From an uncultured bacterium (GTDB lineage Bacteria > Chloroflexota > UBA5177 > JANWHV01), in NCBI GenBank assembly GCA_963729625.1, contig CAVSOU010000005.1, positions 32,001 through 96,000 on the forward strand: a stretch of DNA of 64,000 nucleotides, read 5' to 3'. The notes below the pieces were generated by a model, which was given only the letters and a program-made list of their open reading frames with translations, ran no database searches and had not been told where the DNA came from. The position numbers and the translations under genes were made by a program. This document shows positions 37,603 through 64,000 of this stretch, piece after piece (the stretch's first letter is position 1; each line of letters opens with the position of its first letter).

Positions 37603-38478
37603 ATGATCGCCAGCATGACGGGCTTTGCCCGCCGCGAAGCAGCCCTTGCCCAGGGCACCCTGGTCTGCGAGCTGCGCAGCGTCAACCACCGCTACCTTGA
37701 GGCCGGCCTGCGGCTCCCGGAGGAGCTGAGGAGCCTGGAGGGGGAGTTCCGCGCCCAGCTGCAACGCGACCTGCGCCGTGGCAAGGTCGACTGCACCTTC
37801 ACCTACCGCAGCGCAGGCCCGTCGGACCGCAAGCTGGAGCTCGACCCCGCCCTGCTGGCCCAGCTCACCGAGCGGCTGGCCCAGGTCGCCGCGGCGGTCC
37901 CTGCGGGCGGCGCCCAGACGAGCGTGGACCTGGTGGAGCTGCTGCGCTTCCCCGGGGTGCTGCGCGAGGCGGCCAGCGACAATGAGCCCCTGCTCAAGGC
38001 CGCCCGCACGCTCTTTGGCGAGGCGATCCGGGACTTGTCGGCGATGCGCTCGAGCGAGGGCGGCCGCCTGGCCGAACTGATCCTCACCCGCTGCACGCAG
38101 CTGGAGGAGCTGGTCGGGCGCGTGCGCACGCGTCTGCCTGAGGTGCACGCGCTGATCCGCGCCCGCTTCAACGAGCGCCTGGGGGAGCTGCGCAAGGAGC
38201 TGGATCCGGATCGCCTGGAGCAGGAGGTCGCCTTGAGCCTGCAGCGCCTGGACGTGGCGGAGGAGATGGATCGCCTCGCCGGCCACCTGACCGAGACGCG
38301 CAAGATCATCGCAAGTCCCGAGGCCGCCGGGCGCAGGCTGGATTTCCTCATGCAGGAGTTCAACCGCGAGGCCAACACGCTCTCCTCCAAGTCCCAGGAC
38401 CTGGAGACCACGCGCGCCGCGGTCGACATGAAGGTGCTGATCGAACAGATGCGCGAGCAGGTGCAAAATTTGGAGTGA
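37603..38478 (+). CDS. yicC: YicC/YloC-family endoribonuclease
   Basis: IASMTGF, ELRSVNHRYLE, GRRLDFLMQEFNREANT, IEQMREQVQNLE; divergent from the PP2C-rph operon. Confidence 0.96.
   Translation: MIASMTGFARREAALAQGTLVCELRSVNHRYLEAGLRLPEELRSLEGEFRAQLQRDLRRGKVDCTFTYRSAGPSDRKLELDPALLAQLTERLAQVAAAVPAGGAQTSVDLVELLRFPGVLREAASDNEPLLKAARTLFGEAIRDLSAMRSSEGGRLAELILTRCTQLEELVGRVRTRLPEVHALIRARFNERLGELRKELDPDRLEQEVALSLQRLDVAEEMDRLAGHLTETRKIIASPEAAGRRLDFLMQEFNREANTLSSKSQDLETTRAAVDMKVLIEQMREQVQNLE
38457..38476 (+). repeat. att core 1 (3' end of yicC) GCAGGTGCAAAATTTGGAGT
   Basis: Identical 20-mer at 40061-40080; 19-mer at 41884-41902. Confidence 0.9.
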
Positions 38479-38502
38479 TCTGCGGCGGAAACCGCCCGCA
38501 GA
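38479..38502 (+). terminator. GC-rich hairpin directly after yicC stop (possible terminator)
   Basis: TCTGCGG...CCGCAGA stem; no U-tract. Confidence 0.35.
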
Positions 38503-38685
38503 CGCCTGCGGTGGTGGCGCACGGACAGGGGCGTCACGATATTGCCCAGAGCACCAACGGCTGGTCGATCGCGTATTTACGCAACTCGCGCCTGAGTAAA
38601 AGTGCTGAACGGGTAGCTACGCTGCCATCGCTGGCTGCGCCGCGCTGAACTAGGATCAAGCGGGGTTGACGGGGGCGCAGCGACT

Positions 38686-39318
38686 ATGGACAGACTCAGG
38701 GTCGGTATCCTGATCTTCGACGGCGTCGAGGTGCTGGATTTTTGTGGCCCGTTTGAAGTGCTATCCGTGACTCGTCTCGATGAGGCCACCCGACGCGAGC
38801 AACCCTCACCCTTCGAAGTCTCGCTGCTTGCCGAGACGGATCAACCGGTGGTGGCCACTGGCGGACTGCGCGTGCTGGCCGACTACCAGCTCGCCAACTG
38901 CCCGCCCTTGGACGTGCTGCTGGTGCCCGGCGGCTGGGGGACCCGCAGGGAAATGAACAAACACCGTCTGCTCGAGTGGATCGCGCAGCGTGGCGCACAG
39001 GCCCGACTGCTGACCTCGGTGTGCACCGGCGCCCTGTTGCTCGGCTAGGCTGGCCTCTTGGACGGCAAGCGCGCGACGACGCATTGGCAGGCCCTGAGCC
39101 TGAAGCAGAAGCGGTTTCCCAATACCTGCGTCGAGCACAATCTGCACGTGGTCGAGGACGGTAATCTATTAACGTCGGCGGGCATTTCGGCCGGCATCGA
39201 TATGGCGCTGCGTGTCGTCTGGCGCTACTGCGGTGAGTCCGTGGCTCGGGCGACCGCGCGCTATATGGAGTATCCGTTCCCGGAGAACAATGCGCGCCGC
39301 ATCGCGCTGGACGAGTGA
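38686..39318 (+). pseudogene. DJ-1/PfpI (InhA-like) protein with in-frame TAG at 39046-39048
   Basis: FDGVEVLDFCGPFEV, VPGGWG, SVCTGALLLG*AGLLDGKRATTHW, TSAGISAGID. Confidence 0.85.
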
Positions 39319-39386
39319 ACTGTTCCTGACCACCGGCCCGTTCCAAGGGGCTTCCAAGCGGTCACGAGCCGAACAAGTTCCGGGGC

Positions 39387-39665
39387 CTACCGTGACCGCA
39401 ATTCCTGGCGCAACACGTCACGCAGCCTACGCACCGTAAGCGGGGCGTCGTCCGCATTCATGGCAGCGCGCAGCGTGTCGTTGATGAGCGTCTGGTAGTT
39501 GCCGCCGCCCTTCACTTGGGCACGGAACCACGCCAAGACATCCGCGTCGATGCGGATCGTGATGCGCTCCTTGCTCTCGTTCTCCTTCTGGATGCGGGCA
39601 AGGTGGGGAACATCCTTCGCCCGCTTTGCACGGCTGAAATCAAGCTCGGGCATTTCCGTCTTCAT
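39387..39665 (-). CDS. BrnA-family antitoxin
   Basis: KERITIRIDADVLAWFR...NYQTLINDTLR. Confidence 0.88.
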   Translation of the reverse strand: MKTEMPELDFSRAKRAKDVPHLARIQKENESKERITIRIDADVLAWFRAQVKGGGNYQTLINDTLRAAMNADDAPLTVRRLRDVLRQELRSR

Positions 39666-39937
39666 GGCAGCTCCTCGTATTGACGCGCTGCGCCTGCGCT
39701 CGCCTTGCGGGCCGAAATGATGCGCGTAACATCCGGGCCGCGTTCCGTCCACACCACATACAGCAGCCGATCAGAGAAGGCTCTGCCCAGCGTGACAAAC
39801 CGGGCTTAATCTTCGGCCGTCGGGTCATCACGTGTCAGACCGAGCGGGTCTTCGAGCGCACCCACAGCATCCGCGAAATCCACCTCGTGCTTGCAAATGT
39901 TCTCCTGCCGCTTGGCTTCGTCCCACTCGTTGCGCAT
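39662..39937 (-). pseudogene. BrnT-family toxin with in-frame TAA at 39806-39808
   Basis: EWDEAKRQENICKHEVDFADA...ED*ARFVTLG...VVWTERG...RIISARKA; overlaps antitoxin start. Confidence 0.85.
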
Positions 39938-40031
39938 AGTCTATTGTATGCACGTCGTGCATACAGTCAATACCGCTACGCTTCACCGGGAGATGTATAG
40001 CTGGCCCTAAAACGCGTCAAAGTTTTTATCA

Positions 40032-40080
40032 TTATCAACGCGATACGAGCACCGTAAATTGCAGGTGCAAAATTTGGAGT
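40032..40080 (+). repeat. att junction 2 (arm + yicC core)
   Basis: 43/49 identity with 41854-41902 by manual alignment; ends with the yicC core. Confidence 0.88.
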
Positions 40081-40166
40081 CAATTTGAGGTAACAGCTGG
40101 AGAGCCAACATCCGGTTACTCCGGATGGTCCTGTACGGTAAAATGCCGTATCTTCTGGAGGCGCCC

Positions 40167-40442
40167 ATGCCCACCACCACCGCCCGTTTCGATCTCAAAC
40201 TGGATTCCGGCGAAAAGGAAATCATCGCGCGGGCAGCTGCCCTCATGGGAACAACCATGGCCGGCTTTGTGCGAGCGGCAGCCAAGGAGAAAGCGCAGAC
40301 ATTGCTCGAACGTGAAACCCGCGTTGTACTCAGCGAACGCGATTTCGCGCGTTTTGCAGCGGCCGTCAGCGGACCTTTCGAACCAAACGCGCACTTGTCG
40401 CGGGCGCTGAAGGAGGCACGGCGGAAAGTGCGTCGTGCTTGA
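40167..40442 (+). CDS. DUF1778 (TacA/AtaR-like) antitoxin
   Basis: ARFDLKL..EKEIIARAAAL..GFVRAAA..LSERDF..F; GGAGG RBS. Confidence 0.88.
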   Translation: MPTTTARFDLKLDSGEKEIIARAAALMGTTMAGFVRAAAKEKAQTLLERETRVVLSERDFARFAAAVSGPFEPNAHLSRALKEARRKVRRA

Positions 40443-40920
40443 GGAACGCGCATTCGATATCGGTGTACATGACCGCGGCGGTTTCGATTGCGGTGTTCCC
40501 GAACTCAACAATTACTTGAGACGCTTCGCGGAGCAGCATCGCCGCAAAGGTATCAGCACACCGTTCGTGCTGGTGGATGTCGATACGCCGCACGAGATCT
40601 TGGGCTACTACTGCCTTAGCGCAGCACAAGTAGACGCGACAGAATTGGGGGAAAGTGCCCGCAGGAAACTGCCACGTTATCCGGTGCCGTGCTTTCGTCT
40701 CGGTCGGCTGGCGGTGCACAAGCGCCTGCGCGGGCAGGGCATAGGGAAACTGCTGCTAGCCTGCGCCATCGATCGCTGCCTGAAGGCACGGAGCGACGTG
40801 GCAGCCTACGCGCTGATTGTCGATGCCAAGGATGAAAACGCCAAGCAGTTCTACGAGCGCTACGGATTCGCCGTGCTTGTCAGCGCGCCGATGACACTCT
40901 ACCTGGGGCTTGGCCGATGA
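40435..40920 (+). CDS. GNAT acetyltransferase toxin (TacT/AtaT-like)
   Basis: [48 protein letters not shown]. Confidence 0.9.
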
Positions 40921-41810
40921 TGGACGTGGACGGGCTCATCGCCTCGATCATCCGCGACGAGGATCGCGTGCCACGTGAAGTTATCGAAGAGTGCGCACGT
41001 TGGGGACCCGCGATGGTCGAAGCCTTGGACCGAATCGTCGGTCCCGCAGCGGACTGGAGTTCCTGTGCCAGTGATGGCCACTGGTGGCTGCGGCTGCACG
41101 CGGCGTTCATTCTCGGCCTGATGGACGATACAGAGTCAGGCCGCCTGCTCGCACACCTGATGCGACGGCTTGCGGCCAATGAAGACGAGAACATCGAAGA
41201 CTGGCTGGCCGGCTACTGGCCTGCCCTGTTCCGCAACAAGCCCGAGGAAGTTCTTCCGGACATCGAAGCCATTGCATGGACTGACTTCGCACAACCCTAC
41301 TTCCGTGTGCATGTGCTGGAAGTTTTGCTGGCAGCGGCTCTGCGACGAGGCCCCGGGGAACTCGATGCACTCCTTGCACACATAGCGGAGTGGATCGCGG
41401 CCGCACCGGATCAGGAGGAGCGCGCGCTGACTGCCAACATCCTGCTGGATTTTCCGCGCTCCGCCCACCGAGCCTTGCTGAGTGATATGGCGGCACGGCA
41501 GAAGGGCATGTTCGGCTTGTTTGACGAATCCGATGTCGAATGCTCGTATGCCAAGGGCGACCAACCCGGCTGGTTGCGCTTCGAGGATCCCTGGAGGTTT
41601 TATTCACCTGATCAGATCGACGCCCGACAAAAACGCTGGGCCGAGGAGGATGAGAGGCGCTCGCGGAACGCTGTCGCCGAAGCCGCAGGGATCGACGAAT
41701 CCCTTTACGAGCAGGAGCCGTATCTGCGCAATACGCTCAAAGTGGGTCGCAACGATCCGTGCCCGTGTGGCAGTGGCAAGAAATACAAAAAATGCTTGAG
41801 CGGCGTGTAG
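40917..41810 (+). CDS. helical-repeat protein with C-terminal SEC-C zinc motif (DUF1186-like)
   Basis: [19 protein letters not shown]; translationally coupled to the toxin. Confidence 0.75.
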
Positions 41811-41902
41811 CTGGCGGTGCAGCTATTATCGGATGCCGACCATTTCCGTAAATTTATCAATGCGCTACGCGCACCAGAAATTCCAGGTGCAAAATTTGGA
41901 GT
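41806..41902 (+). repeat. att junction 3 (TGTAGCT arm repeats + yicC core)
   Basis: TGTAGCTG/TGCAGCTA at 41806 and 41818; core CAGGTGCAAAATTTGGAGTAG. Confidence 0.85.
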
Positions 41903-42323
41903 AGTTAGCATAGCGAACTACTTCCAGCACCCTGACCTGCCGTCTCTTTACCGCACTGAATTCATGCGGAGAATGGGCTCGTCGTCGCAACAATCGTCTG
42001 CTCAAGGCGCCCTGCAGACAACACGAGTATCAGGGCGATCCACCCCGAAACACTCTGGTCGCATTGTCGACGTTGAGTCCGGAGCTGACTGTGCGCTAGG
42101 TCAACCCACACTCAACTAATATTTGTATAAGAAGGAAAGGTGTGTTTGCGCCGATTGACTCTCCGGCGTGGCGACTGCGACGGCGACTTCGGAGCGTGGT
42201 GAGTCGCCCGCAAGAAGAATGGAGGTGGCCCCATGGACATCCCTTCGTCCTCTTGCCGGGGCCTTGTGCCGGCCCCGTGCAACCCCCTGATGGCCAAGCC
42301 CCGGGCGGGGCAGGCTCTGCGCC

Positions 42324-43103
42324 TCAGCCCTTGCAGGGGTGCGGCGCCCACTTGGAGCCGTCGGGCTCCTTGCGAAAATGCGAGCTGGTCATGAACTGGC
42401 GCTGCAGGTATTGCGGGTCGTCGACCAGCGTCGTGACCACGAACCACTGACTGCCATCGGCGACCGGGAACGTGTCGTAGTACTCGGTGATCTTCGCGTT
42501 CTCGCTGTAGGGCACGCCATTACGTCGCAGCCAGCCTGCCGTGTGGTTATCGGTCACCACGTGCAGCGAACCGTTCGGTGGGAGCCTGCTCGGGTCGGCG
42601 GCCGGGCCAGCCAACAAGTCGGTTGGGTCGACGGAGTATTCCCAGTTCGCAAGCGAGTTGCCCTGCAGCGTGCGCGGACCGGCCTTGATGTCGGCCTTGT
42701 CAAAGTTCAGCACGCGCGTCTGCTGGCCCCAGTCGGACTCGATCTTCAGCGTCTGGTCGTCGACCCAGGTGATGTGCAGGCGCGTGGGCATGCGCAGCAG
42801 GTTGCCGACGCCGTAGGCCTTGCACGAGCCGTCGTTGGCGTCCGTCCAGGTGTCGGCCTGCTTCTTGCCCTCGGGGTTGAGCGGCACGCTCTGGTAGTCG
42901 CCCTTGGCCGGCGTGACCATGCGGTAACGCCAGTCCTCGTTGACGATCGAGACCCAGTAGCCGGCCAGGTCGATCGGGGCTGCAACCTTCGGGGCCGGCG
43001 GCGGGCCGGTCGGACCGCGCGGGGCCTGCTGCGCAGTGGCCATCTGCCCCAGCGTAAGCAGTGCCACCGCGAGGGTGATGCTCTTAACGGCGCTGATCTT
43101 CAT
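42324..43103 (-). CDS. uncharacterised secreted protein, paralog type A
   Basis: Signal peptide; DLAGYWVSIVNEDWRYRMVTPAKG, LRRNGVPYS, EPDGSKWAPHPC. Confidence 0.75.
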   Translation of the reverse strand: MKISAVKSITLAVALLTLGQMATAQQAPRGPTGPPPAPKVAAPIDLAGYWVSIVNEDWRYRMVTPAKGDYQSVPLNPEGKKQADTWTDANDGSCKAYGVGNLLRMPTRLHITWVDDQTLKIESDWGQQTRVLNFDKADIKAGPRTLQGNSLANWEYSVDPTDLLAGPAADPSRLPPNGSLHVVTDNHTAGWLRRNGVPYSENAKITEYYDTFPVADGSQWFVVTTLVDDPQYLQRQFMTSSHFRKEPDGSKWAPHPCKG

Positions 43104-43176
43104 GAGATGCTTTCTCCAGGACTGTTCGTTCAGCCGTGCGCTGCCTGGGCCCGGGCCCCGCGGCGGCGCCGGGTGC

Positions 43177-44253
43177 TTACTTCTTGCCCTTCGGGGCAGG
43201 CCTGAGCGAGTTGTAGATGGCTTCGATGAACTTGTCGGTCGTCCAGAAGCCCGTGGTCGCGCCGAATCGACCGTCGTAGTCGGACGAAGGCTTGGCGGCC
43301 TTGACCTGGTCGAGGGTCTTGCCGGCCTTGATGAGCACCGCGACGCGGTCACGGATGATCGTGAGCATATCGCGGTATTCGACCAGGTCGGACTGGTCGC
43401 CGATGCGGCCGTGGCCCGGGATGATCAGCGTGCCGCCTTCCTGCTGGTGGTCGGGAACCGCGTAGTCGATGATGTCGTTCACCGCAGCCAGCACGCCATT
43501 GATGTTGCCGCCATTGGCGGTGTCGATCACCGGGTACATGTCGGTGAAGTAGAGGTCGCCGGTCGCCACCACGTCGGAGCGCCGGAAGCTGACCCAGTAG
43601 TCGCCATCGGTGTGCGCGTTCTTCGGGTGCACCATCTGCACGGCCTCGCCGTTGAAGTGCAGGCTGTAGATGGGCTCGAGGTGCGTCTCGGAAGGCCACA
43701 ACTCGCGGTCGGCCTTGAAGCCGCCCGGGCCCTTCGCGTCGGGCTCGGTCATGTAGATCATCACCGTCTCGTGCGCCATGACAGTCGCGCCGGTCGGGAT
43801 ATTGCCGCGATCGCGCACCACGTTGCCGTCGAGGATGGTGTCACCGGCCTTGCGGATCACCTCGTTGCCGCCGGTGTGGTCGGCATGCAGGTGGGTGTTG
43901 ATCACGTAACGGATCGGCTTGTCGCCGGCGAGCTTCTTGATCGCCGCGAGCAGCTGCTCGGCGAGCGGGCGGATGCCGGTGTCGACCACCAACACGCCTT
44001 CATCACCGAGCTGCACGACCACGTTCGAGGGCTCGCCCGTCATCGGCCAGACGTTGCCGGCGACGTGGTAGGGCACGATCTCGACGGCCGGGCGGGCCGC
44101 AGGCGCGGCGCCCGCGGGAGTGGCGGGCTCGGCCGCGAGGGCCGTGCCACCGGCCAGGGCCGCGACGAGGCCAAGGAGGCTCAGCGCCGAAGCCTTGCGA
44201 TTGCCGTGCATGCTGCACTCCATACCAGTATTGATTGCGTTGGATCGGGTCAT
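43177..44253 (-). CDS. secreted MBL-fold metallo-hydrolase (cyclase-like)
   Basis: VVDTG, INTHLHADHTGGN, AHTDGD, TGDL, IPGHG. Confidence 0.9.
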   Translation of the reverse strand: MTRSNAINTGMECSMHGNRKASALSLLGLVAALAGGTALAAEPATPAGAAPAARPAVEIVPYHVAGNVWPMTGEPSNVVVQLGDEGVLVVDTGIRPLAEQLLAAIKKLAGDKPIRYVINTHLHADHTGGNEVIRKAGDTILDGNVVRDRGNIPTGATVMAHETVMIYMTEPDAKGPGGFKADRELWPSETHLEPIYSLHFNGEAVQMVHPKNAHTDGDYWVSFRRSDVVATGDLYFTDMYPVIDTANGGNINGVLAAVNDIIDYAVPDHQQEGGTLIIPGHGRIGDQSDLVEYRDMLTIIRDRVAVLIKAGKTLDQVKAAKPSSDYDGRFGATTGFWTTDKFIEAIYNSLRPAPKGKK

Positions 44254-44265
44254 GGCGTTGCCTGC

Positions 44266-45166
44266 TTACTTCTTCTTCGCCGGCTTCTTGGCCGAGGCTT
44301 GCTGCGCGCGCCAGGCGGCGATGCGATCCTGCGTCTCGGGCAGCGCGGTCTCGGGGCCGCCCTCGGTCTCGGCGAACGGCAGGTTGAAGCGGTTCGCGTA
44401 TTCGTGGTCCATGTCGTCGGTGCCCGGCAGGTGCGCCGGCACCATGCCGCGCTCGCGCGGGATCTCGGTGGCCGGGCGGCACGGGTAGGCGCCGATCGCC
44501 ACATTGTCAGCCCTGGCGGTAGCCGGTGGTCTTGATCATCGGCTCGGCGAGGTACACCGGGTCGTAGACCATCAGCACGTGCGTGAGCACGTCTCCGTGG
44601 CGGATGAAGCGCTCGTCGGAGCTGGCGCGGTCGGAGAGCGCCAGGCCGTTGCGGCGGATCCAGCCCACCTTGAGGTGGTCGGTGTGCACGACCAGCTGGT
44701 CGCCTTCCCAGCGGCCGAGCGAGAAGCCCTGCCAGGTGTGCGGAGAGGCGGCGACCGGGTGCGGGCGGCCGTCCATGTAGATGTGGCGGTGCTGCGCTTC
44801 CCAGACGATGTAGGTCTCGATCTCGGTCTGCTTCTGCGTGACCGGGTCGAGGTCTTCCCAGATACGCAGGGTACCAACGCCGCGGATACCGTAGGTCGAG
44901 GGGTGCGGGATGCATTGGTGCTCGGGCTCGGTAAGGATCGACGGATCCCACGCGTGGCCGCGCTCGCGCATCGCCTGGTTGATGGGAGCCGCCGTACTCG
45001 TGCTGGTCGGGGCCTGGGATTCGCTCGTCGAAGTCCTCGTCGAACACGGGGCCCCAGTAGCCGAGCAGCAGACTCTGGGAGTGGGCCGGTGCATCGCCAG
45101 CAACCCAAGTGCCGCCAGCATCACGCAAGCGAGAGCCGTACGCGCATTAAATGTCGACATTTTCAT
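44266..45166 (-). CDS. uncharacterised secreted protein, paralog type B, frameshifted
   Basis: GYW, PEHQCIPH, IYMDGRPHP, TWQGFSLGRWEGDQLVV, RRNG, DPVYLAEP. Confidence 0.7.
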
Positions 45167-45196
45167 AACTTCGCCTCGGACGGGACTGGAACGAGA

Positions 45197-46288
45197 TTAA
45201 TGCTTACCGGCCGGTCGTAGTGCGCAGACAGAAAGCACTGCCAGCGCTGTGGCGCTGGGCGAGGCAGCATCCGGACACTGGTCATTTCGTGCCTTCAGAA
45301 TGCATCGCAACGTGTAGTAAAGCCCTGGTCTCCGGCTACGGTGAAGGACGAGCCGCAGCAATAGTGCCCGCAGTATTCGCCGGTGGCCGATAGGCAGGTG
45401 CGATGCGCTGCGCGAACTCCGCATACATCGTGTCTCGCCCCCCATCGCTGCCTCATGCGGGATGTTGTACTGGGTTGTCATCGACATGAAGTTCGGGTTG
45501 TCGGCCGGCGTCAGATAGCTCGGCACGTGGCCGTTCAGCACGCTCGGCACCTCTTCCGCGGACATGCAACTGTTCGGGTTGGTCGCCCCGACCACGGCAT
45601 CCAGCGGCTTGCTGTGGTCTGACGCGAACACATTGGTGATCACAAAGGGGGCCGTCAAGTTGACCGGATCCTGGATGACGCCGGTGATCACAAGATTGGA
45701 GCCCTGCCGCGTCAGGAGACATGGTCAGGACCTCCTGATCGCTCGTCGGCACGCCATTGCGGGTCAAGTAGCCATCCTGCAAATGCGTGGTGACGGTCTT
45801 GAGCGTGTCGCCTTTCCAGCTTCCTATTGTGAACCCAGCGGGTGTTGAGAGCGCCTGGGCAGAGGGCGGCTTACGCCCATCCATCCATATGGTCGTGGGC
45901 TCCCGATCGATGGTGCCGTTCAGATTCCAGGCAATCACCGCACCGGTCTCCGGATCGACGGTGGGCCACAGACGGAAACCCCAAGCTGCCTCAAGCAAGT
46001 AGTGCAGCGAATAGGGTTGGCGCTGTTCCCCACTTCGCTGATGGTCTCGGGCGTGTGGCTCAGTGCGGCCGCGCGCGCCTGCTCATTGATAGGAATGCCG
46101 GCATAATCTTCGTAGTTCGGTCCTTCGAAAAGCAACTGGACATCCTGGTCCACGGCCCCCACGTAGGTACCGGAGAGATCTACCTGTGCCGTGGCGAGGC
46201 TCGTCTGCAGCAACAACGCGAAGCCGGCGAGCGCCCCAAGGCAGTTGAGCTGACGCCGGATCGGCCGGAACGTGGTGCGGCTTTTCAC
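45197..46288 (-). CDS. uncharacterised secreted protein, paralog type B', frameshifted
   Basis: QVDLSG, YAGIPINEQAR, IWMDGRKPP, GFTIGSWKGDTL, TRNGVP, DPVNLTAP. Confidence 0.7.
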
Positions 46289-47108: not shown

Positions 47109-47142
47109 ATCTATTACCTACTCCTTCCTGTGCTGTCCGATC

Positions 47143-48267: not shown

Positions 48268-48818
48268 GGATCGCCCCTAGACCGCTGTTAGCCTGATCAT
48301 TTTGCCGCTCCGTCTCCGGGCATCGATCTGACACTTGTCCATCATCTACGCCGTCCAACTTCGTTGAACGCTATTGCCCCACGCACGTAACTTGTACATC
48401 GACGTTTTTGTCGGCGCATGGTTTTATCGCCTAACCCTCCAGCACGGCGCTCCGGCTGCTGCATCGAATCAACACTTGCGTTCTGAGCCAAGCTGACCAT
48501 CGGTGGCTCCCGTGCAACACATGGATGACCGCCCTGCACCTTCGCGTCAGTCCGCTTGGACGGGATGGACAAGAATGAATGGGGCTGTCCAAGCTGCGTA
48601 TCGGGTCAGCATAAGAATAGGGCCTTTGCTTCGTGAGTACATCAAGAATGCCAGGGCGTCGACTTGCAAGTAGAGCTCGGCCATGTTCGCCAACAGCTTC
48701 CGGTGGGAACAACCATCCGCCATTTCTACAGGAAAGAAGGGAGGCCCGATGCGCTGGCGATGCCGTTTCTGCTGCGTTGGGACCGCTAGGCCACTTAATG
48801 GCGGGCCGTGCGCAGCGC

Positions 48819-55322: not shown

Positions 55323-55585
55323 GTCATACCTCCACTCATGTTGCAGTCATTTTCTTCAGACACACGGGCCTGTTTCTAACTTAGCGCAGCACACCGTCCT
55401 TGAATAGCCGCCTTGCCTGCAGTTCGATCGTGCCGCCAACCAGGTCCGCGGGCACTCATGGTGCTACTTGGACCGGGGCTCCTACGCAGGAAGCCGCCAG
55501 CGCAACGTCACCCACTCGTACGCATGCTCATCCAGATCAGGAAAGAATGGGTTGGGTGGCATCTCCGCCCTGAGGAAGGGATCGT

Positions 55586-56992
55586 GTCCCAGCGAGTGGT
55601 GTATGAGTCGTGAGTTCTGGTCAGGTTGGACTCATGCTCAGTTGACGACGGCCGACAACCGAACGGCTTGATTGTTGCTCAAGGACTGCAGGCCCTCAAG
55701 CTGCATGTAGCGGCGCTGCAGTTGCCACTCGTCGTTTTGCTCCAGCAGCAGCGCCCCGACGAGGCGTATCACAGCGTTTTCGTTGGGGAAGATGCCGACG
55801 ACGTCGGTCCGGCGCTTGATCTCGGCGTTGACCCGCTCCAGCGGGTTGGTGCTGTGGATCTGGGTCCGGTGGGCCTTCGGGAAGCTCATGTACGCCAGCA
55901 CATCGGCCTCGGCGGTGTCCATCAGGTCCGCGAGCTTGGGGAACTTCGCGCGCAGCTGATCGGCGACGACACGCCACTGCTGCGCTTGCCGAGTCGAACG
56001 AGTCCTGCGCGAACGCGGTGTTGATCGCCGCCAGCACCATCTGCCGCTGGCCCTTGCCGGCGTGCGCCAGGGCGTTCCGCAGGAAGTGCACCTTGCAGCG
56101 CTGCCACGTGGCGGCCAGCACCTTGGCGGCGGCGGCCTTGAGGCCTTCGTGGGCGTCGGAGATCACAAGCTTTACGCCCCGCAGACCGCGGCGGGTGAGG
56201 GAGCGCAGGAACTCGGTCCAGAAGGGCTCTGCTTCGCTCGGCCCGACCGCCATGCCGAGCACTTCGCGCACGCCGTCGGTGTTGACCGCTACGGCGATTA
56301 TTACGGCCTTGGAGACGATCCGGCCGGCCTCCCGTGCCTTCACGTAGGTCGCATCGATCCACAGGTATGGCCAGTCCCCTTCGATGCGGGCGATCGAGGA
56401 ACGCATGAACGCGTTCGTCGATCTCCCCGCAGAGCCTGCGACCTGGCTCTTGGAGATCCCGGTCATGCCCATGGCCTTGACCAGCTCGTCGACCGAGCGG
56501 GTGGAGACGCCCTGGATGTAGGCCTCCTGGATCACCGCCGCCAGCGCCTTCTCCCCCGTGCGGCGCGGCTCCAGGAACCCCGGGAAGTAGCTGCCCTGAG
56601 CGCAGCTTGGGGATCTTCAGATCGACCGAGCCGGCGCGGGTCTCCCAGAGCCGCTCCCGGTAGCCGTTGCGGCTGTTGGCCCGGTCCGGACTGCGCTCGC
56701 CGTAGGCGGCGGCGCAGAGGCCCTCGGCGTCCATCTCCATCATCCGCTGGGCGACGTACTGGATCATCTGCCGCAGCAGATCCGTGTCTGCCCCCTTCTC
56801 GATGAGCTCGGACAGTGCAATGCTTGGCTTGGTGGTCATCGTGGTGTTCTCCGGTTGAAGTCCGGTGTGGTAACCAAACCTTAAACCAGGACCCACGATG
56901 GCCGCCTTCCCGTCGCCTGCGGCGACGTCGGCGCTACCTCTCCGAGCTAAAAGCTCAGATCAGCAAATCCCTCATACACCACGGGATGGGAC
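55586..56992 (-). mobile_element. IS256-family element (transposase ~55638-56840, frameshifted)
   Basis: [48 protein letters not shown]; IRs 55586-55607 and 56971-56992. Confidence 0.92.
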
Positions 56993-57245
56993 GTCAGCAG
57001 AAGTGTTGCCCGGCCGCTATCGCCGCGTGCACATCTTCGAAGCCAATGCCACGCTCAGCCCAGAGCAGCCTGTTCTTGGCCTCGCTCCAGCGATAAGTCT
57101 TCGCTGGACAAGACCATTACAATGTGTGCCGTTTGTCATCGGCTGCTCCAGCGCTGGTGTAGTTCGTCACCTCAGAAAGAGCGCGCCGGCGCACTGACAT
57201 GTGTACCCGCGCATCTAGACGGAAAAGGCTGGAAATCTTCGTTTT

Positions 57246-57406
57246 GTCCGGAGTAGCCCAGGCCAATCCTCGAGGCGCCACGGACATCCAGCCAAATCCA
57301 CCCATCTCGTTGTAGCTAGATCAGTAGCTTACTTGGCGCAGCACTTCTTTTCGCAGCTGTGTCAATTGGTTAGGGAGGTGGGGAGAAGCGGGTGCAGAAT
57401 CTGGAG
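57246..57406 (+). repeat. att junction 4 (~160 bp arm + VQNLE-coding core)
   Basis: Colinear imperfect repeat of 60552-60715; TGTAGCTA/AGTAGCTT at 57311 and 57323; core GGTGCAGAATCTGGAG. Confidence 0.8.
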
Positions 57407-57628
57407 CAGTTTGCGCAGCAAACTACTCCAGATCGCTCACAAGGCCGGGCATATGTCAGCAACGGCGCGTGGTGGCCGCCCTGTTGTGGCCCTGATTGTT
57501 ATCACGAGCGGCCAGTGCGCATCCTGAGTATCGTGGCGATTCGCACCGAAACACGACGCTCGGAAATGGCTCAGCAGGGGCGTTCACACGTGAACTCGCG
57601 GCGCGGCATCAACCATGATGTGCGGCTG

Positions 57629-58987
57629 TCAAGCAAAGCTGATCAACACAACTACGCCGGTACGATCTGCTGTCCGCTGATAGGCATCCACAGTCTGCTC
57701 AAGCGAATACGTATGCGTGATCATCGATTTCACGTCGTAAGCGCCGGTCTCGATGTAGCGCACGAAGCGCGGTATGTCCCTGAGGGGTACGGCACCGCCG
57801 AAAGTCGAAGGGTGGTGCGTCCTGTTCATAACAGCCCACATGCCGGGGTTTGAAAAGACCAGATCGCCATGCTGCCCTGCACCCAGTGTGATGAAGTCTC
57901 CCCCGGGAACACATGCCTCCCACGCCTGGCGTAACGAGGTAACGCCAGAAGGATCAGGCCCAGCTGGCACCTTGGGCGGGAGTCGATCGCCCCCCACTGC
58001 TTCGATGACAAGCTCGCCGCCGGCGGTCGCAAACGACGGACCTCCTCCGGCAAAGGTTCTCGACGAATAACCGGTACAAATCGACTTGATGCTGGCAATG
58101 AGGTTATTTCCCTCTGAGTTTGGATCCAGCACATGTGTAGCACCCAGTTTCAATGCCAGATCCCGGCGGTGTTTCGCGGGTTCCACAACCACAATTCTGG
58201 AGGCACCGCGAATCCTCGCTCCCTGTACTGCACTGAGCCCCACCAGCCCTGCGCCCAAGACGACGATGTTTGAACCCGGAAGCACCGGCACGAAACAAGC
58301 TGCCGCTGCAAGTCCAACCGTGCCGCCACTGATAAGTACCGCAAGCTCTTGGGATGAAACGCTGGAACTTACCGGGTGCACAGAATACTCATAGGGCACC
58401 ATAATCTCTGAGGTGCCGCCAACGTTCGCTGTCTGATAAATCTTCTCGCCACTCCTTGTCTCTGCAATCGGTACAAGTGGTTCAAAGAACGCATTGCAAA
58501 AGTCTGCTCGCCCCTTTACGCAGGCGCTACACACGCCGCAATGCGGGTTGAACGCGACGATGACACGATCGCCAACCTTCGCGCGCGTGACAGCCGATCC
58601 CACGGCCTCGACAATACCAACGCCGCCGTGCCCGACGATCGTTGGCAGCTCAGGAAAATCCGGGGGCTCCAGCCCAAGCATGACCCCGGCGAGCGTATAC
58701 GTACAGAGCGTCGCCTCCGTTCTAACAACTAATTGCTTCTCAGCGATGGGTCGCAGCGTCAGTTCTTCTATTGAGCTGCGCGTACCACGATGAACCTGTG
58801 CTCGGAATTTTCGGGCGGGAGTGGAGGCCGCTCGTGGTTCGGCCGCAGATGCCGTTGCTCCTAGGGCAGCGCCGCCAATCATTGCCCCTGCGCCAACCAA
58901 CGCATTTCGCCTTGAATAGATTGGCTTTGATGAGTCGTCGCTGTCGATCATCCCCGGCGTGCTATCGGAGGTGTTCATAATCCCCAC
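57629..58987 (-). CDS. Tat-signal zinc-binding alcohol dehydrogenase (MDR family)
   Basis: SRRNAL signal; GHGGVG, CGVCSAC..FC structural Zn, GAGLVG. Confidence 0.85.
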   Translation of the reverse strand: MGIMNTSDSTPGMIDSDDSSKPIYSRRNALVGAGAMIGGAALGATASAAEPRAASTPARKFRAQVHRGTRSSIEELTLRPIAEKQLVVRTEATLCTYTLAGVMLGLEPPDFPELPTIVGHGGVGIVEAVGSAVTRAKVGDRVIVAFNPHCGVCSACVKGRADFCNAFFEPLVPIAETRSGEKIYQTANVGGTSEIMVPYEYSVHPVSSSVSSQELAVLISGGTVGLAAAACFVPVLPGSNIVVLGAGLVGLSAVQGARIRGASRIVVVEPAKHRRDLALKLGATHVLDPNSEGNNLIASIKSICTGYSSRTFAGGGPSFATAGGELVIEAVGGDRLPPKVPAGPDPSGVTSLRQAWEACVPGGDFITLGAGQHGDLVFSNPGMWAVMNRTHHPSTFGGAVPLRDIPRFVRYIETGAYDVKSMITHTYSLEQTVDAYQRTADRTGVVVLISFA

Positions 58988-59439
58988 TACCTTGGTACTT
59001 GGTACCCACTTCTCGCCCTAACGAAATCATGTAGCTCCCAATGCCCGTCTATGGCACAGGAATAGGCGGATAGTACTTTCAGTCGGCCATGATTGGCCAC
59101 GATTGCGCGACAGACCGCCTCGCGAGCACCTCGCGCGTGCCGGCCGGACGCCCGATCAGGATATCGCCAGCGCAGCCGCCAGCCTCTGATCAGCCTGTCA
59201 GCCCCAGCTGGGCTGGGCCAGTTGACCTATGACTGCCTCTCCACTCCGGCCCCCGTCAGCCCGTCACCGGGCGCAGCCCGTCCCGACCCGCTGCCGTGAT
59301 GGCGCAGGATCGGCTCTCGATCCGATTGCCGAAGCCCCACCCTGGCCGCACAGCAACGCCCACGGCAGCGGCGGCGCCCGCGCTGCTTGGGGCGCCAGTT
59401 CCGGCTCCTGGGCACCGGTGGTGCGATCCGGACGCACCA

Positions 59440-59790
59440 GGATGCCAGCGATGACCGCCGGCTCTACCTTCGCGCCGGGCCTGTCATATACCGCGTGCAC
59501 CACAAGTTCGCACACACCGATGTGGCGGTGTCGGCCGGCGTGCAGTACAGGGTGCGCAGTGACCTGGGCGCCAGCGGCGTGATGTTCACGCTCGACACCG
59601 ACTCGGACTTCCGCGACGTGGTGTTCATCGCCAGTTCGTACGGCCTCGGCGAGACCGTCGTGCAGGGCGCGGTGAACCCGGACGAGTACTACTTGCACAA
59701 AGCCGGCCTCGCGGCCGACCAGCGCTGTGTGCTGCAGCGGAACCTCGGCGCCAAGGCCATCAAGATGATCTATGCCGAGGGTGGCAGCGA
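59440..59790 (+). pseudogene. ppsA: internal fragment of phosphoenolpyruvate synthase
   Basis: [38 protein letters not shown]. Confidence 0.75.
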
Positions 59791-59901
59791 CAACGGGGCA
59801 GCGGCACGCGGGTCCGTCCATCCTACAAGAACGTTGCCGCATCGCATGCAATGGCCGCACCCCATAGTCGGTACCGTGTATCCCATGGCTCACAGTACCC
59901 C

Positions 59902-60210
59902 ATGCGTCAGATCATCCGGTCTGGAACGTTTGGTCTCTGGTTAGCCGGTCTTCGTGATCGCAATGCTAGAACGCGGGTCATGGTGCGCGTGGACTGGCTG
60001 GCCGGCGGCAATGCGGGCGACGTGAAGCCGGTAGGCGCTGGTGTCAGCGAACTGCGCATCGACTGCGGCCCAGGTTACCGCGCGTATTTCTTCCAGAGGG
60101 GCGACGTGCTTGTGGTGCTGCTTTGCGGTGGCGACAAGCGCACCCAGGTGGCCGATATCAAGCAGGGGCGATCCAGTTGGCCGCACAGTGGCAGGAGCAG
60201 AATCATGGCA
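59902..60210 (+). CDS. RelE/ParE-family addiction-module toxin (frameshift near 3' end)
   Basis: [37 protein letters not shown]. Confidence 0.85.
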
Positions 60211-60505
60211 AAAGCCAAGCGCGAGAAGTACGCTTCTTACGACAGCGCGGACTGCCTTCGCGCCAAGTAAGGACGTTGCCGCTTATCTCAGGGTCTGCAT
60301 GGAAGATGCGGGCGATGATCCCGCCTTCATCGTCCAGGCACTTGGTACGGTGGCACGCGCCAAAGGCATGCCGAGCCTTGCCAAGAAGACGGGACTCACG
60401 CGAGAGGGCCTGTACAAGGCGCTAAGCAAAGGCGGCAATCCAAGCTTCGGCACCGCGTTTCGAGTCATCCACGCCAAGGGCCTGAGGATGGAATTGGCAC
60501 GCTAG
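60205..60505 (+). CDS. addiction-module antidote (HTH antitoxin), frameshifted
   Basis: YDSAD, ALGTVARAKGM..LA..GLTREGLYKALS..GNPSF. Confidence 0.85.
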
Positions 60506-60551
60506 ATTCGGGTCATTAATTCGGCCGACAACGACGGAACTCTCGCACTTC

Positions 60552-60715
60552 GTCCGGAGTAGTCCGACATGGCCCGGCAAGCGGCAACGACGTCCAACCA
60601 AATCTAGCCCTTTCGTTGTAGCTGGATCAATAGCTAGATTGGAGCAGCCCTACTTTTCGCAGCCACTTCAATTGGTTAGGAAGGCGGGGAGGAGTTGGTG
60701 CAGAACATCGAATGA
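60552..60715 (+). repeat. att junction 5 (arm + VQNIE*-coding core) preceding the integrase
   Basis: Core GGTGCAGAACATCGAATGA 60697-60715; arm repeats at 60617 and 60629, and 60848 and 60860. Confidence 0.8.
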
Positions 60716-60890
60716 CTTCCGCAGTCATCCGAGAGCTTCCAGAGAAGTTGCCGTAAACCCCATGAGTTTCTGTCTGTTTTGACCAGATTCATCCACTAGG
60801 GCCCAACCCCCTCTGGGCTACATTCGCAGCGAGGCAGGTAGCCGACCTGTAGCTAATTCTGTAGCTACCATTCGACGAGAAGGGGGCGCA

Positions 60891-62148
60891 ATGGCACGCG
60901 CGAAACTCACGGCGCTGAGCGTCGAGCGGGCTCACCGGTCCGGCGAGCCGCTGCTGCTCAGCGACGGTGATGGCCTCTACCTGCGTAAGCAGACCCGCGA
61001 TGGCGCCTCGTGGACGCTCCGCTATCACTACGCGGGCAAGGAGCATTGGCTCACGCTCGGCAACTATCCCGACATGCCGCTTTGCACAGGCGCGCATAGG
61101 CGCGCCAGGCGCGCGTGCTGCTCGCCAAGCAGCAGAATCCACTGGCCGTCCGGCGCAGCGCTCTGACTAAGGAACGCCAGAAAGGGTCGTTCAAGACGCT
61201 CTGCGAGGATTGGTATCGCGCCGAAGTCCAGGCGCGCGGCCTCAAGCACCCCACCGTCCCGCGCCGCTATCTCGACAGGTACCTGCTGCCGAAGTTCGGT
61301 CGATTCCCTGCCAGCGACATCACGCCCGCGGATGTCGCCTGCCTGTTGGACGAGATCAAGGAGCGCGCCCCGACCGCTGCGAATGATCTCCTGCGCTTCA
61401 CTCGGCGGATTTTCGCGTTCGGCGTGCGTCTTCGTTTCGTGCCGAGCAGCCCTGCGACCGATTTCTCGCCTCGACTGGATGCCGGCGGCACGGAACGGCC
61501 GCGCAGCCGCGCGTTGAGCACCGAAGAACTCGCACGACTCTTCAAAAAGATCCGCGAGACCCCGAGCTTCGGCGAGGACAACTTGCTCGCGATCAAGCTG
61601 CTGCTGGCACTGTGTGTACGCAAGGGCGAACTGCTGGGCGCAGGTGGACTGAGTTCGATCTCAACGGCAAAACTCCCCTCGGCGCTGTCTGGCACTTGCG
61701 TGGCCCGCGGACCAAAACGGGTGAGAGTCTCGACATACCGTTGACGCCGGCGGTGATCGAATGGGTCACCGCCTTGCACACGCTCACGGCGGGCAGCGAC
61801 TACACCTTCCCGAAGCGCTGCCGTGGTCCGCGGGAGCGGGTACCGCACGTCGGTATCGATACCCTGAACGTGGCGTTGCAGCGCGTGAAGCACGAATTAC
61901 CGCACTTCACACTCCACGATCTCCGGCGTACAGCGCGCACGCACCTCGCAGCATTGGGCGTGCGGCGCGAAGTTGCAGAGCGCTGTCTCGGCCACAAGCT
62001 CCGCGGGGTTGAGCGGACCTACGATCGTCACGATTACTTCAAGGAGCACCGCGTGGCGCTGGAGCAGTGATCCACGCTGATCCGCCAGGCTGAGAGCGGC
62101 GAACGGAAGGTCGTGCCCCTTCGCGCCAAGAACATTCGGGAAAATTAA
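60891..62148 (+). pseudogene. P4-like tyrosine integrase (Arm-DNA-binding type), frameshifts plus TGA at 62068-62070
   Basis: SDGDGLYL, LTLGNYP, R(KGEL), KT, HDLRRTART, ERCLGH, Y(DRHDY). Confidence 0.9.
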
Positions 62149-62798
62149 GGTCGTTGCATCCGTCGAAACTGTTCAACCAGCAAAGGCATGTCTGTGTCCG
62201 GAGCGATGCCGCCGCTGGCCCTCAATTCCGCTTTCAACTGCTGCACTCTCTGGCACGAAAGATCGAGTTGCGCTGCCGTCTTGCAGAAAATGTCGCGATC
62301 GCTCTTTCGATAGTCGGGCAGATGGGCGCGGAGCGCTTGCTGCACCTCGGCCGCGTTCTGGAACGGACGCGCCGAGTACTCGAAGTGGAGCAGCAGCCAG
62401 AACTCAATACTCGGGCAACTGGCGATGATCTGCACTTGCGTGGTGGTACCGGCGGCGTTTCGCAGCGGGCGAGCGGCCAGCGCCCGCGCGGCGACCAGAT
62501 GATGCGAGTCGCCATCGCAGACCACGTAGACCAGATCGTAGTCGCGGTCGCTCTTGAATAGCTTTTGCGCTTTGCGAACGAGTCCGACCGGATCGGTCAC
62601 CGAGTCACCGGCCTCGATGTGAACGGCGGCGGCGTTGATTCGCAGGTGATCGCGCAATCCGTCGATATAATTCGGCTCCGTTTCGCGGCCTTCGCAGACT
62701 ACCAATATCGCGGGCAACCCACGGCGCGACGCTTTCTGACGCGCAAGGCGACGCTGCTCCTTGCGCATCTGCCGGTGCTTGGGCTGATTGTCGCGCAT
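62145..62798 (-). CDS. RloB-family TOPRIM-like protein
   Basis: ILVVCEGRETEPNY, VVCDGD, SCPSIEFWLLLHF. Confidence 0.88.
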   Translation of the reverse strand: MRDNQPKHRQMRKEQRRLARQKASRRGLPAILVVCEGRETEPNYIDGLRDHLRINAAAVHIEAGDSVTDPVGLVRKAQKLFKSDRDYDLVYVVCDGDSHHLVAARALAARPLRNAAGTTTQVQIIASCPSIEFWLLLHFEYSARPFQNAAEVQQALRAHLPDYRKSDRDIFCKTAAQLDLSCQRVQQLKAELRASGGIAPDTDMPLLVEQFRRMQRP

Positions 62799-62802
62799 CG
62801 CT

Positions 62803-64000
62803 TCAATGCAGGTGGGTTCGCGAGATGAAGGGCACGCCGCCGTACCGCGCGCGCAGGTACCCCTTCTCGAGCGCCTCGCCCTTGCGCGGACTGAAGGCGG
62901 TCAGAGGATAGAGTCGGCTTGCCTGGCGTTCGTCCTTGTCCACGAACCACACCTGATCACGCCGCAGCAGGTCCGTGTCCAGCAGCGACGTGTCATGAGT
63001 CGTCATCCACAGCTGCGCACCGTGCTTCGAAACCTCCGGATTGTGGAACAGGCTCAGCACGAATCGGACGACCATCGGATGCAGGCTCGAGTCGAATTCA
63101 TCGACGACCAGGAGCTTGCCGCTTTCCAGAACATCGAGGATCGGGCCGATGTAGGACAGCAGCCGCTGGGTACCCGCCGATTCGAATCGACCATCGAATG
63201 CGACTGCGTCCTCGCCTTCGAGCTTGTGAACAAACTTCACGATGGGGAGCTCCTGTGCGCTTGTCGATAGTTCAGGCGCCTTGCCGGGCTCCAGCTTGAA
63301 GGCCACCTGATGACCCGGAACATTCTCCACTTGGATGTCCGCGATGTGCAGATCTGCCGAGCGCAATAGACTCAGGGCCCGGGCCTTGAAGGCTGGGTCA
63401 TCCATGCGCTGCAGTGTCTGGCCGAATGCCCAGCGCGCCAGCCCAGTTCACGATGACGAGGCCATCCATAAACCAGTTCCAAAGCGGCTTGAGCTGCTCG
63501 TTGTTGAGCTGAATGGCTGTGGTCAGGAACAGTGCGCCCGGCCTCGTGGCCTGCCGCCAGGTTTCCTTCGACCCGGTGAAGTAACTCGAGAAGGGGGCCC
63601 ACTCGTGCTCGCCCTTCGCATCATTCCAGCGGCGCTCGAACCAGGACTGACCCTTCCCGGTCTTGTAGACGATCAGCCACTCGTCACGAATCCGCTGCGC
63701 GTCATAGGAGAAGCCGTACTGGTAACGCGTGCCGTCGAGCAGAACCACGATCTCGAACTCCGTGGGATCCCCCGCGCTGCTGCGCTCAAGGCGATAGGGG
63801 GTGTACTGCTCGGCACGCGCGGCATCGAGCATCGACGTGGAATGCAGCACGAGGTTGCGCATGGTCACGAGGGCAAAGATCAGGTTGCTCTTGCCGCTGG
63901 CATTGGCGCCATAAACGACACCCGCCCGGTTCAGCCTTGGCACGCTTCGAACGCCGGTCTCAATGGTGTGCGTCGCAAGGTGTGAGCGGTCCGTACTCGA
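62803..64000 (-). CDS. AAA_21/RloA-type ATPase, frameshifted near 63400, 5'-truncated by window edge
   Basis: YGANASGKSN, ESAGTQ, LVVDEFDSSLHP, QLWMTTHD, LRRDQVWF, GYL.ARYGGVP. Confidence 0.88.

Follow-up and report, generated by a model that had tools for sequence, protein, structure and literature searches.

The window analysed here is a stretch of 64,000 nucleotides, corresponding to positions 32001-96000 of contig CAVSOU010000005.1 (C5) in the 5.41-Mb assembly GCA_963729625.1 (G000). It contains the gene yicC and, directly behind it, an array of five units separated by copies of the yicC 3' end; four of these units have no integrase, and the fifth carries the gene for a P4-type tyrosine integrase (Table 1). 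An earlier note on this DNA had likened the array to an integron, in which one integrase accretes non-autonomous cassettes in trans and toxin-antitoxin (TA) modules stabilize them. We compared the region with 80 related loci, obtained in a scan of species-representative genomes, and with 53 loci from a metagenome scan in which a 19-nt core was the query. L-numbers denote related or metagenome loci, G-numbers genomes and X-numbers sequencing runs, which were used as assembled contigs. Pfam assignments in the window refer to open reading frames (ORFs) of 90 aa or more.

Four of the repeats are copies of a 20-nt core, GCAGGTGCAAAATTTGGAGT: the copy inside the yicC end is matched at 20/20 bases by copy 2, at 19/20 by copy 3 and at 16/20 by copy 4, with spacings of 1604, 1822 and 15505 nt between successive copies. 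In the closest relative, L004, yicC ends in GAGCAGGTGCAGAACATCGAGTGA, and copy 5 agrees with this at 21 of 24 bases. When the 24-nt yicC end was sought with up to 3 mismatches, the window held two matches, against an expected 0.00, and across all of G000 the core with up to 4 substitutions occurred five times, namely four times in the array and once, at 16/20, on contig C8. Cores 4 and 5 are weak by themselves and are supported because their flanks are conserved: the 144 nt to the left of these two cores are 76% alike. Similarly, the 29-49 nt to the left of cores 2 and 3, the 'type A' right arm, resemble each other (88% over 49 nt). Judged from their sequence, the repeats are att cores that delimit the units exactly. 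The five recurrences of the yicC end described in the earlier note, with units of 1.6, 1.8, 15.5, 3.3 and more than 3.3 kb between them, are therefore upheld, and the units are bounded by direct repeats of the target 3' end, as in tandem accretion. The array extends past the window, since gmk lies at C5:108105 and the yicC-gmk interval is 37.6 kb. Between position 60715 and gmk, no sixth core was found by blastn at word size 7 or by a pattern search with up to 7 mismatches, which gave two chance-level matches of 17/24, and comparison with L004 gave no boundary for the right end of unit 5.

It is extremely improbable that these repeats are due to chance, or to an assembly that has stacked different strains upon one another. 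Core 4, taken alone, agrees at just 16 of 20 positions, C5 looks mis-binned (see below), and single-base indels separate the window from contigs of run X1. However, the count expected for the yicC end is 0.00, the arms and arm repeats described below lie at fixed distances from the cores, the same architecture occurs in other genomes, and an independent X1 contig of 5616 nt covers 38356-43968 and thus spans cores 1-3. Among the matches listed, single bases at 44508, 45718, 52987 and 53232 are missing from the X1 contigs. Dropping base 44508 extends an open frame from 229 to 309 aa, dropping 45718 extends one from 209 to 294 aa and dropping 53232 one from 736 to 762 aa; the loss of 52987 changes no frame. 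The window thus contains indel errors or strain-specific frameshifts, and in view of these single-base differences the frame breaks in the genes for the integrase, AbiLi and the HI1420-type antidote are not secure.

The contig probably does not belong to the genome in which it was placed. yicC is absent from 40 of the 40 other genomes taken as relatives of G000, the SpoT protein of C5 is only ~42% identical to SpoT of these relatives, and G000 has a second RelA/SpoT copy on contig C10. The best matches to yicC are in Steroidobacteraceae-like metagenome-assembled genomes, and a Steroidobacteraceae-like gammaproteobacterium is the probable source of C5, which would thus have been mis-binned. Because the relatives of G000 lack yicC and have a divergent SpoT, the related loci of yicC were used as the comparison set instead.

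The last bases of yicC are CAAAATTTGGAGTGA in the window and CAGAACATCGAGTGA in L004. At L098, attL is CAGGTGCAAAATTTGGAGT and attR is CAGGTGCAGAACATCGAA: the integrase-bearing island at that locus brings a CAAAATTTGGAGT end and shifts CAGAACATCGAA to its own attR, which indicates that, to the right of CAGGTGCA, attL is element-derived. The low-GC end that yicC now has in the window was probably likewise brought in by an element. In the mechanism that we propose, the P4-type integrase, with its N-terminal arm-binding domain, would act at the yicC 3' end with crossover within CAGGTGCA, and each incoming element would bring a yicC end with it; yicC would in this way stay intact, and a core copy would remain at each junction.

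The integrase of unit 5 has the Arm-DNA-bind_3, Phage_int_M and Phage_integrase domains (Pfam) of the P4-type build and is 62-83% identical to intact relatives by tblastn. That only the last unit carries an integrase, as the earlier note had claimed, was confirmed in three ways: Pfam detected none in units 1-4, a tblastn search with seven intact relatives matched C5 only at 92867-94130 (unit 5) and gave no sign of a remnant in units 1-4 (E up to 1e-3), and PF00589 had a single match on C5. An element with its own integrase beside attL at the yicC 3' end is thus found as unit 5 and in eight related loci, and units 1-4 are without one. Tandem accretion includes a cognate integrase-bearing element in the array, and unit 5, with its integrase and the left arm of this family, is such an element. 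No relaxase or transfer family appeared among the Pfam matches of units 1-4 (no separate search for serine recombinases was made), and no excisionase or mobilization family among those of the window units or of five integrase-bearing relatives.

A short paired repeat was found at both kinds of arm. The pattern GTAGCTN6RTAGCT, allowing one mismatch, gave five matches at four sites in the window, against 0.22 expected. Three of these sites are at the right ends of units 2, 3 and 4, each 79 nt ahead of the GGTGCA in the core that follows (cores 3, 4 and 5), and the fourth immediately precedes the integrase. In the integrase-bearing relatives, two GTAGCT pairs directly precede the integrase, and a further pair is found 82 nt ahead of the attR GGTGCA. 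Over all fetched DNA, the pair occurs 79-82 nt before a core at 15 sites (for two of which the distance was taken from the core coordinates, as the script had shown an earlier fuzzy match) and upstream of the integrase in eight loci; elsewhere, there were only two one-mismatch matches. The paired GTAGCT repeats are likely to be the arm sites of the integrase, and the pair at 79 nt in units 2-4 suggests that the right ends of these units are proper right arms for this integrase family. Furthermore, the junction at 60572-60890, in which the right arm of unit 4, the core and the arm-repeat left arm of unit 5 come together, looks like a complete attP-like site.

As the earlier note had proposed, three of the four integrase-less units (1, 2 and 4) have a TA pair, although the BrnT gene of unit 1 contains an in-frame TAA, and the ATPase/TOPRIM pair of the last unit is RloB with AAA_21, which PADLOC assigns to AbiLii and AbiLi. 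Both nonsense codons of unit 1 are substitutions, and X1 shows no difference at them among the matches listed. Copies of the TacAT DNA of unit 2, 80% identical, stand directly after yicC in L031 and L064; arm repeats and a second core were looked for at these two loci and were not found, so that they offer no evidence of the unit 2 boundaries. In unit 3, between 42300 and 48300, paralogous sets of an unknown secreted protein and a metallo-beta-lactamase-fold protein are repeated, and short stretches of 70-92% similarity are spaced ~3.9-4.0 kb apart. Past the window, unit 5 continues with SNF2 fragments, a PDC-M21A/B pair and an IS1595 fragment. A search of 38000-62000 against Rfam gave no match at E up to 1.

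Table 1. Features of yicC and the units behind it (positions in the window)
Feature	Position	Strand	Unit	Basis
yicC, target gene	37603..38478	+		Pfam YicC N and C domains; ends compared across 80 loci
Core copy 1, array attL, inside yicC end	38457..38476	+		Repeat search
Unit 1 (1.6 kb)	38479..40060		1	Pfam, translations, right-arm listing
DJ-1/PfpI gene, in-frame TAG at 39046	38686-39318		1	Pfam, translation
BrnA antitoxin	39387-39665	-	1	Pfam
BrnT toxin, in-frame TAA at 39806-39808	39662-39937	-	1	Pfam, translation
Single degenerate arm repeat TGTATAGCTGG	near 39983		1	Right-arm listing
Core copy 2, 20/20	40061..40080	+		Repeat search; type A arm to left
Unit 2 (1.8 kb)	40081..41882	+	2	Pfam, arm repeat
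TacA antitoxin	40125-40442		2	Pfam
TacT, GNAT toxin	40435-40920		2	Pfam
SEC-C-motif protein	40917-41810		2	Pfam
Paired arm repeat GTAGCTGGCGGTGCAGCT	41807-41824		2, right end	Pattern search
Core copy 3, 19/20	41883..41902	+		Repeat search
Unit 3 (15.5 kb)	41903..57387		3	Cores 3 and 4
Type B left module, non-coding, ~170 nt, conserved	41903..42075	+	3	nhmmer 172.6 bits, E 1.9e-50; alignments
Cargo of unit 3	42076..57265		3	Pfam
Two metallo-beta-lactamase-fold proteins and several paralogous unknown-family proteins			3, cargo	Pfam
TonB-dependent receptor	49677-51995	-	3	Pfam
MalT/LuxR fragments	52224-52815		3	Pfam
Amidohydrolase-tannase protein	53136-55322	-	3	Pfam
72-nt remnant of small gene	55507-55578		3	96-97% identity to five metagenome loci
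IS256-type transposase, three frames	55638-56896	-	3	Pfam
Type B right arm, paired arm repeat GTAGCTAGATCAGTAGCT at 57312-57329	57266..57387	+	3	nhmmer 117.7 bits
Core copy 4, 16/20	57388..57407	+		Repeat search and flanks
Unit 4 (3.3 kb), up to right arm	57408..60571		4	Pfam, nhmmer, translation
Weak type B left module	57483-57565		4	nhmmer 22 bits
Zn-dependent alcohol dehydrogenase	57629-58987	-	4	Pfam
PEP synthase internal fragment	59387-59944		4	Pfam
Gp49/HigB-like toxin	from ~59902		4	Pfam
HI1420-type antidote, two frames	~60205 to 60505		4	Pfam, translation
Type B right arm, paired arm repeat GTAGCTGGATCAATAGCT at 60618-60635	60572..60691	+	4	nhmmer 116.1 bits
Core copy 5, GAGTTGGTGCAGAACATCGAATGA	60692..60715	+		21/24 to L004 yicC end
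Left (P') arm, arm repeats GTAGCTAATTCTGTAGCT at 60849-60866	60716..60890	+	5	Resembles L016 arm
P4-type tyrosine integrase, three frames	60891..62124	+	5	Pfam; tblastn; DNA alignment
AbiLii/RloB	62145-62798	-	5	Pfam, PADLOC
AbiLi/AAA_21, two frames, leaves window	62803-63405 and 63398 onward	-	5	Pfam, PADLOC

The ends of units 3 and 4 recur elsewhere, and we refer to this kind of unit as type B. The 53 metagenome loci comprised 32 yicC ends from several clades (with gmk directly next in some), 11 unrelated low-GC matches, one unclear case, four junctions of another arm type and five junctions of type B (L087, L104, L112, L117 and L120). At these five, the core is joined to a ~125-nt arm like that preceding cores 4 and 5, and in four of them the core is followed by a ~170-nt sequence like that at 41903-42075 of the window; L119 and L133 have yicC, the core and then the same left module. 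In nhmmer searches, the left module scored 170-189 bits in L087, L104, L117, L119, L120, L133 and the window (at 41905), and the right arm scored 108-118 bits in L087, L104, L112, L117, L120 and units 3 and 4 of the window; these scores cover the very sequences from which the profiles were built. In eight copies, the module starts right at the core and stops at approximately the same position of the profile. Genomes gave independent support, as the left module matched in 6 of 301 sampled Steroidobacteraceae genomes, in three of them over 150 nt or more. Neither a structured RNA nor a small ORF in the module was supported: the consensus fold of 10 sequences had 51 predicted pairs with only 3 compensatory ones and no Rfam match, and the start codon of the ORF is not conserved in the alignment. 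A separate observation concerns L147 (G202, contig C7), where 8441-8625 holds a left module of 72% identity preceded by CTGGAGTAG; it is not beside yicC, and lies ~260 nt from genes for tRNA-Val and tRNA-Asp.

Two genomes show whole elements of this family. In G099, the order is yicC, core, module, 2.65 kb of cargo, arm and core, and in G236 it is arm, core, module, 2.1 kb, arm and core; neither element contains an integrase, and both have a MazE/AbrB-type antitoxin and a PIN toxin beside the right arm. Across the type B loci the cargo varies, and includes a TonB receptor with FecR and a sigma factor, efflux/ABC genes, hydrolases, DJ-1, a GNAT toxin and a permease with VapBC. In line with the earlier note, integrase-less units recur at yicC in other genomes with other cargo, in which TA pairs are frequent. 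For the same pairs of genomes, the module is 72-83% identical and yicC 62-68%. Between G099 and G236, the left 145 nt are 81% identical and the right 973 nt 85%, compared with 72% for yicC and 74% for gmk, and the middles are unrelated. Ends that are better conserved than yicC and gmk, around unrelated middles, point to horizontal spread of the ends with changing cargo. In G236, contig C39 has an intact integrase (an open frame of 434 aa, 83% identical to that of L016) that adjoins yicC, and this contig ends in IS256; the type B element is on C42, the contig that bears gmk. If C39 and C42 form one array, as is presumed, the order in G236 is opposite to that in the window, so the suggestion that the integrase lies as a rule at the distal end does not hold.

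Among the 80 related loci, gmk follows within 700 nt of yicC in 35, and a homologous integrase starts ~145-250 nt after the yicC stop in eight, with three more on short contigs. A further 30 have other DNA after yicC, with no related integrase seen, three are too short to judge and one has no stop codon within the locus. With regard to empty sites, one contig of run X2 matches the yicC end up to the core (38476) and then diverges; by eye, its loose end has a stop codon and, a few bases on, the start of a gmk-like gene, and it is possibly the empty site of a relative. Four integrase-bearing islands have both ends visible (L038, 3.9 kb; L016, 5.9 kb; L049, 8 kb; L098, 4.4 kb). Islands of this type have defence- or toxin-like cargo (RhuM/Fic, HNH, a Schlafen-type helicase with MazG, ORF6N), and Pfam recognised no transfer genes in the integrase-bearing relatives. 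The yicC-gmk interval is thus a hotspot of insertion.

Other inserts were seen at the same position. In L008, a 2.27-kb unit (6672-8972) lies directly after yicC between perfect 29-nt repeats; it has one ORF of 677 aa with a sub-threshold pectate-lyase-like Pfam match, has neither an integrase nor GTAGCT arm repeats, and may come from another integrase family. At L103 (6945-10403), and also at L096, L116, L128 and L130, yicC and gmk are separated by a 3.4-kb insert that lacks an integrase and contains two small genes on the minus strand and the gene for a HipA toxin, preceded by a helix-turn-helix gene. Two genomes share an EVE/PUA-like protein (MRYWWVNQNQTF...) that is encoded in yicC-linked elements, at L145 (G236, C42; 281-4363) and L064 (12463-13515). 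In G236, its neighbours are proteins of 643 and 119 aa which, by eye, are like the Schlafen-type helicase and MazG-like gene that Pfam identifies in L049.

On balance, we think it probable that the region arose by tandem accretion of at least five yicC-specific islands, of which units 1-4 are non-autonomous elements like the cis-mobilizable elements (CIMEs) described elsewhere. Unit 5 would be an ordinary small island of integrase plus defence genes. Units 1-4 would have kept their cores and units 2-4 also a proper right arm, without an integrase or left arm repeats, and units 3 and 4, as type B, would consist of the ~170-nt left module and the ~125-nt right arm around exchangeable cargo, with a TA pair often adjoining the right arm. 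We infer that the integrase-less units were moved, now or formerly, by the integrase of a neighbouring or co-resident island, in trans or in cis, and that the TA pairs hold them in place.

Several observations weigh against this reading. The left sides of units 1-4 have the core and no arm repeats. By the standard of the lambda paradigm, the missing repeats count against excision and integration by these units on their own. Units 1, 3 and 4 are decayed, as seen in the DJ-1 TAG, the BrnT TAA, the PEP-synthase fragment and the MalT/LuxR fragment. The 72-nt remnant in unit 3 corresponds, at 96-97% identity, to the beginning of a small gene found ~440 nt past the yicC core in L096, L103, L116, L128 and L130, all of which also carry HipA; the remnant sits beside IS256, which suggests that unit 3 is a mosaic that has lost at least one neighbour. 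The unit 5 integrase itself has indels relative to the L016 gene at 61081, 61097 and 61640, which break its frame and may be assembly errors. Apart from the core, the type A right arms (units 1 and 2) matched nothing in the fetched loci, and the type B family is rare, its right arm being present in 2 of 401 sampled Steroidobacteraceae genomes. Five of the seven type B metagenome loci have a common contig-name prefix, so that these five may derive from one population or even one array. In G099, a related integrase was not found with the query used and, as C5 is probably mis-binned, the rest of G000 is uninformative about a helper integrase. When contigs of runs X1, X2, X6 and X3 were compared with 37500-57490, no joint at any core was among the matches listed, and the joints that were listed had short sides of 20-55 nt at unrelated places; none of six type B metagenome contigs had the terminal overlap of a circle. 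In both cases, contigs drop rare forms.

Much of this would also be expected if the array were an inert graveyard, whose integrase-less units are deletion remnants of larger integrase-bearing islands, were never mobile as such and would be immobile today. The type B ends would then go back to one decayed ancestor and would have spread only alongside other islands or vertically. We regard this as possible, if rather unlikely. The nonsense codons and gene fragments, the remnant beside IS256 and the left ends without arm repeats all fit it. So does L036, a clear deletion derivative of an L049-like island, in which the integrase is cut to residues 70-176, the HNH and RhuM/Fic cargo is that of the intact L049, and 47 nt of the integrase-type left arm are kept. 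Decay is, moreover, a published route to CIMEs in the excerpted text of PMC5704250. However, deletions that arose independently would be expected to have differing end points, like the one in L036, whereas the eight copies of the left module start at the core and share one end. Likewise, ends that outconserve housekeeping genes around unrelated middles, and the lack of an integrase remnant in units 1-4 at the E value given above, are at odds with a graveyard.

If tandem accretion with mobile type B units is correct, a more specific mechanism, which we offer tentatively, is that type B elements are propagating 'half-site' passenger islands, which insert at yicC with the help of a resident autonomous island, borrowing from it the integrase as well as the left-arm sites that they lack. 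Such an element would carry only the right-arm sites and the 170-nt module, and the module may serve an accessory factor or transfer. Its insertion would rebuild a full attP-like junction, such as that at 60572-60890, and would in this way yield integron-like arrays. If this were true, type B would be the site-specific counterpart of the miniature inverted-repeat transposable elements among transposons.

The resemblance to integrons is real in one respect, namely that exchangeable units stand in a row beside one recombinase gene, and in chromosomal integrons TA cassettes are frequent. In integrons, however, the recombinase is of another family, the sites are attC hairpins, the platform is fixed and most cassettes hold a single gene and no promoter. 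On C5, no IntI stands next to an attI, the sole tyrosine recombinase being the P4-type enzyme, and the unit ends consist of a ~125-nt arm and a copy of the yicC end. The array is not an integron, as the integron features tested here are missing. A looser version of the analogy, in which a resident integrase at the far end captures cassettes singly beside yicC, as at attI, is highly unlikely. The layout, with a single integrase and with TA genes in three of the four units that lack one, and what looks like a complete attP-like site before the integrase would suit it. However, this P4-type integrase with its arm-binding domain is not an integron integrase, and in relatives it resides in self-contained, mobile islands of 3.9-8 kb with their own attL and attR. 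Furthermore, the order is reversed in G236 (given the presumed contig linkage), the units are multi-gene, up to 15.5 kb long and bounded by gene-end copies and arms, and 35 of the 80 related loci have an empty site and no platform. Of the cassette array put forward in the earlier note, the non-autonomous units therefore remain, supported by the att cores, the arm repeats of units 2-4 and the recurrence in other genomes, and the dedicated integron-like platform does not.

Several elements of this picture are already published, at least in the excerpts of PMC5704250, PMC3146451 and PMC8409611 used here: integrase-less CIMEs, tandem accretion and yicC as a target. CIMEs are flanked by attL and attR, lack integration and transfer genes, and stand in tandem with an integrase-bearing element (PMC5704250, section 2.3). 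Those related to ICESt1 and ICESt3 of Streptococcus thermophilus share with the window a target at the 3' end of a gene, the tandem arrangement and chimeric att junctions (PMC5704250, as excerpted). The partners in the window are small islands of integrase plus cargo in which no conjugation genes were seen, unlike ICESt1 and ICESt3. Type B also departs from the CIME account in PMC5704250, so far as excerpted, in being a family conserved at both ends, with exchangeable cargo and several hosts, and not a set of one-off decay products. The ssrA islands of Dehalococcoides, 16 of which have an integration module and others of which their authors suggested to be cis-mobilizable, likewise stand in a row behind an essential gene with 20-bp copies of its 3' end and a motif just upstream (PMC3146451, in part). 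There, the enzyme is a CcrB-like serine recombinase and the target is tmRNA, in place of a P4-type tyrosine integrase and yicC, and the excerpted account does not describe a conserved left module of integrase-less units like that of type B.

yicC itself is the target of the mobilizable genomic islands (MGIs) MGIVflInd1, MGIVchUSA1 and MGIVmi1 and of the SGI1-like IEEcoMOD1 (PMC5704250, PMC8409611; excerpts of both). Like unit 5, these islands lie at the yicC 3' end with the integrase next to attL, a likeness of target and position, and some, like the window, contain TA pairs (two TAs in MGIVchUSA1). According to the same excerpts, they are 20-37 kb long, encode their own integrase as well as an excisionase, possess an oriT or mobilization genes, and occur in Vibrio and enterobacteria, whereas the islands in the window and related loci are 2-15 kb long, mostly lack an integrase and have no recognised mobilization genes. 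The tycheposons of Prochlorococcus are small cargo elements that are also stacked, with partial target copies between them and degenerated remnants, but they have their own integrase and replication modules and target tRNA genes, and the excerpted account gives no integrase-less family with conserved ends (bioRxiv 10.1101/2020.12.28.424599). In a limited literature search, an integrase-less family with both ends conserved and exchangeable cargo was not met in the consulted portions of the CIME, ssrA-island, tycheposon and yicC-MGI accounts, and this family is the new aspect of the present analysis.

Strain-specific genes come in large part from islands stacked in tandem behind conserved genes, and those pieces that lack an integrase are usually dismissed as debris. 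That both ends are common to several hosts while the cargo changes suggests that some such debris is a working class of non-autonomous elements, riding on small integrase islands. For the annotation of such arrays in metagenomes, a GTAGCT pair that precedes a yicC-end copy by 79-82 nt would serve as a signature. If our interpretation is true, a single integrase together with a short arm repeat and the 170-nt module would make a simple and testable system, and would give a handle on how soil bacteria shuffle defence, transport and TA genes without plasmids or phages.

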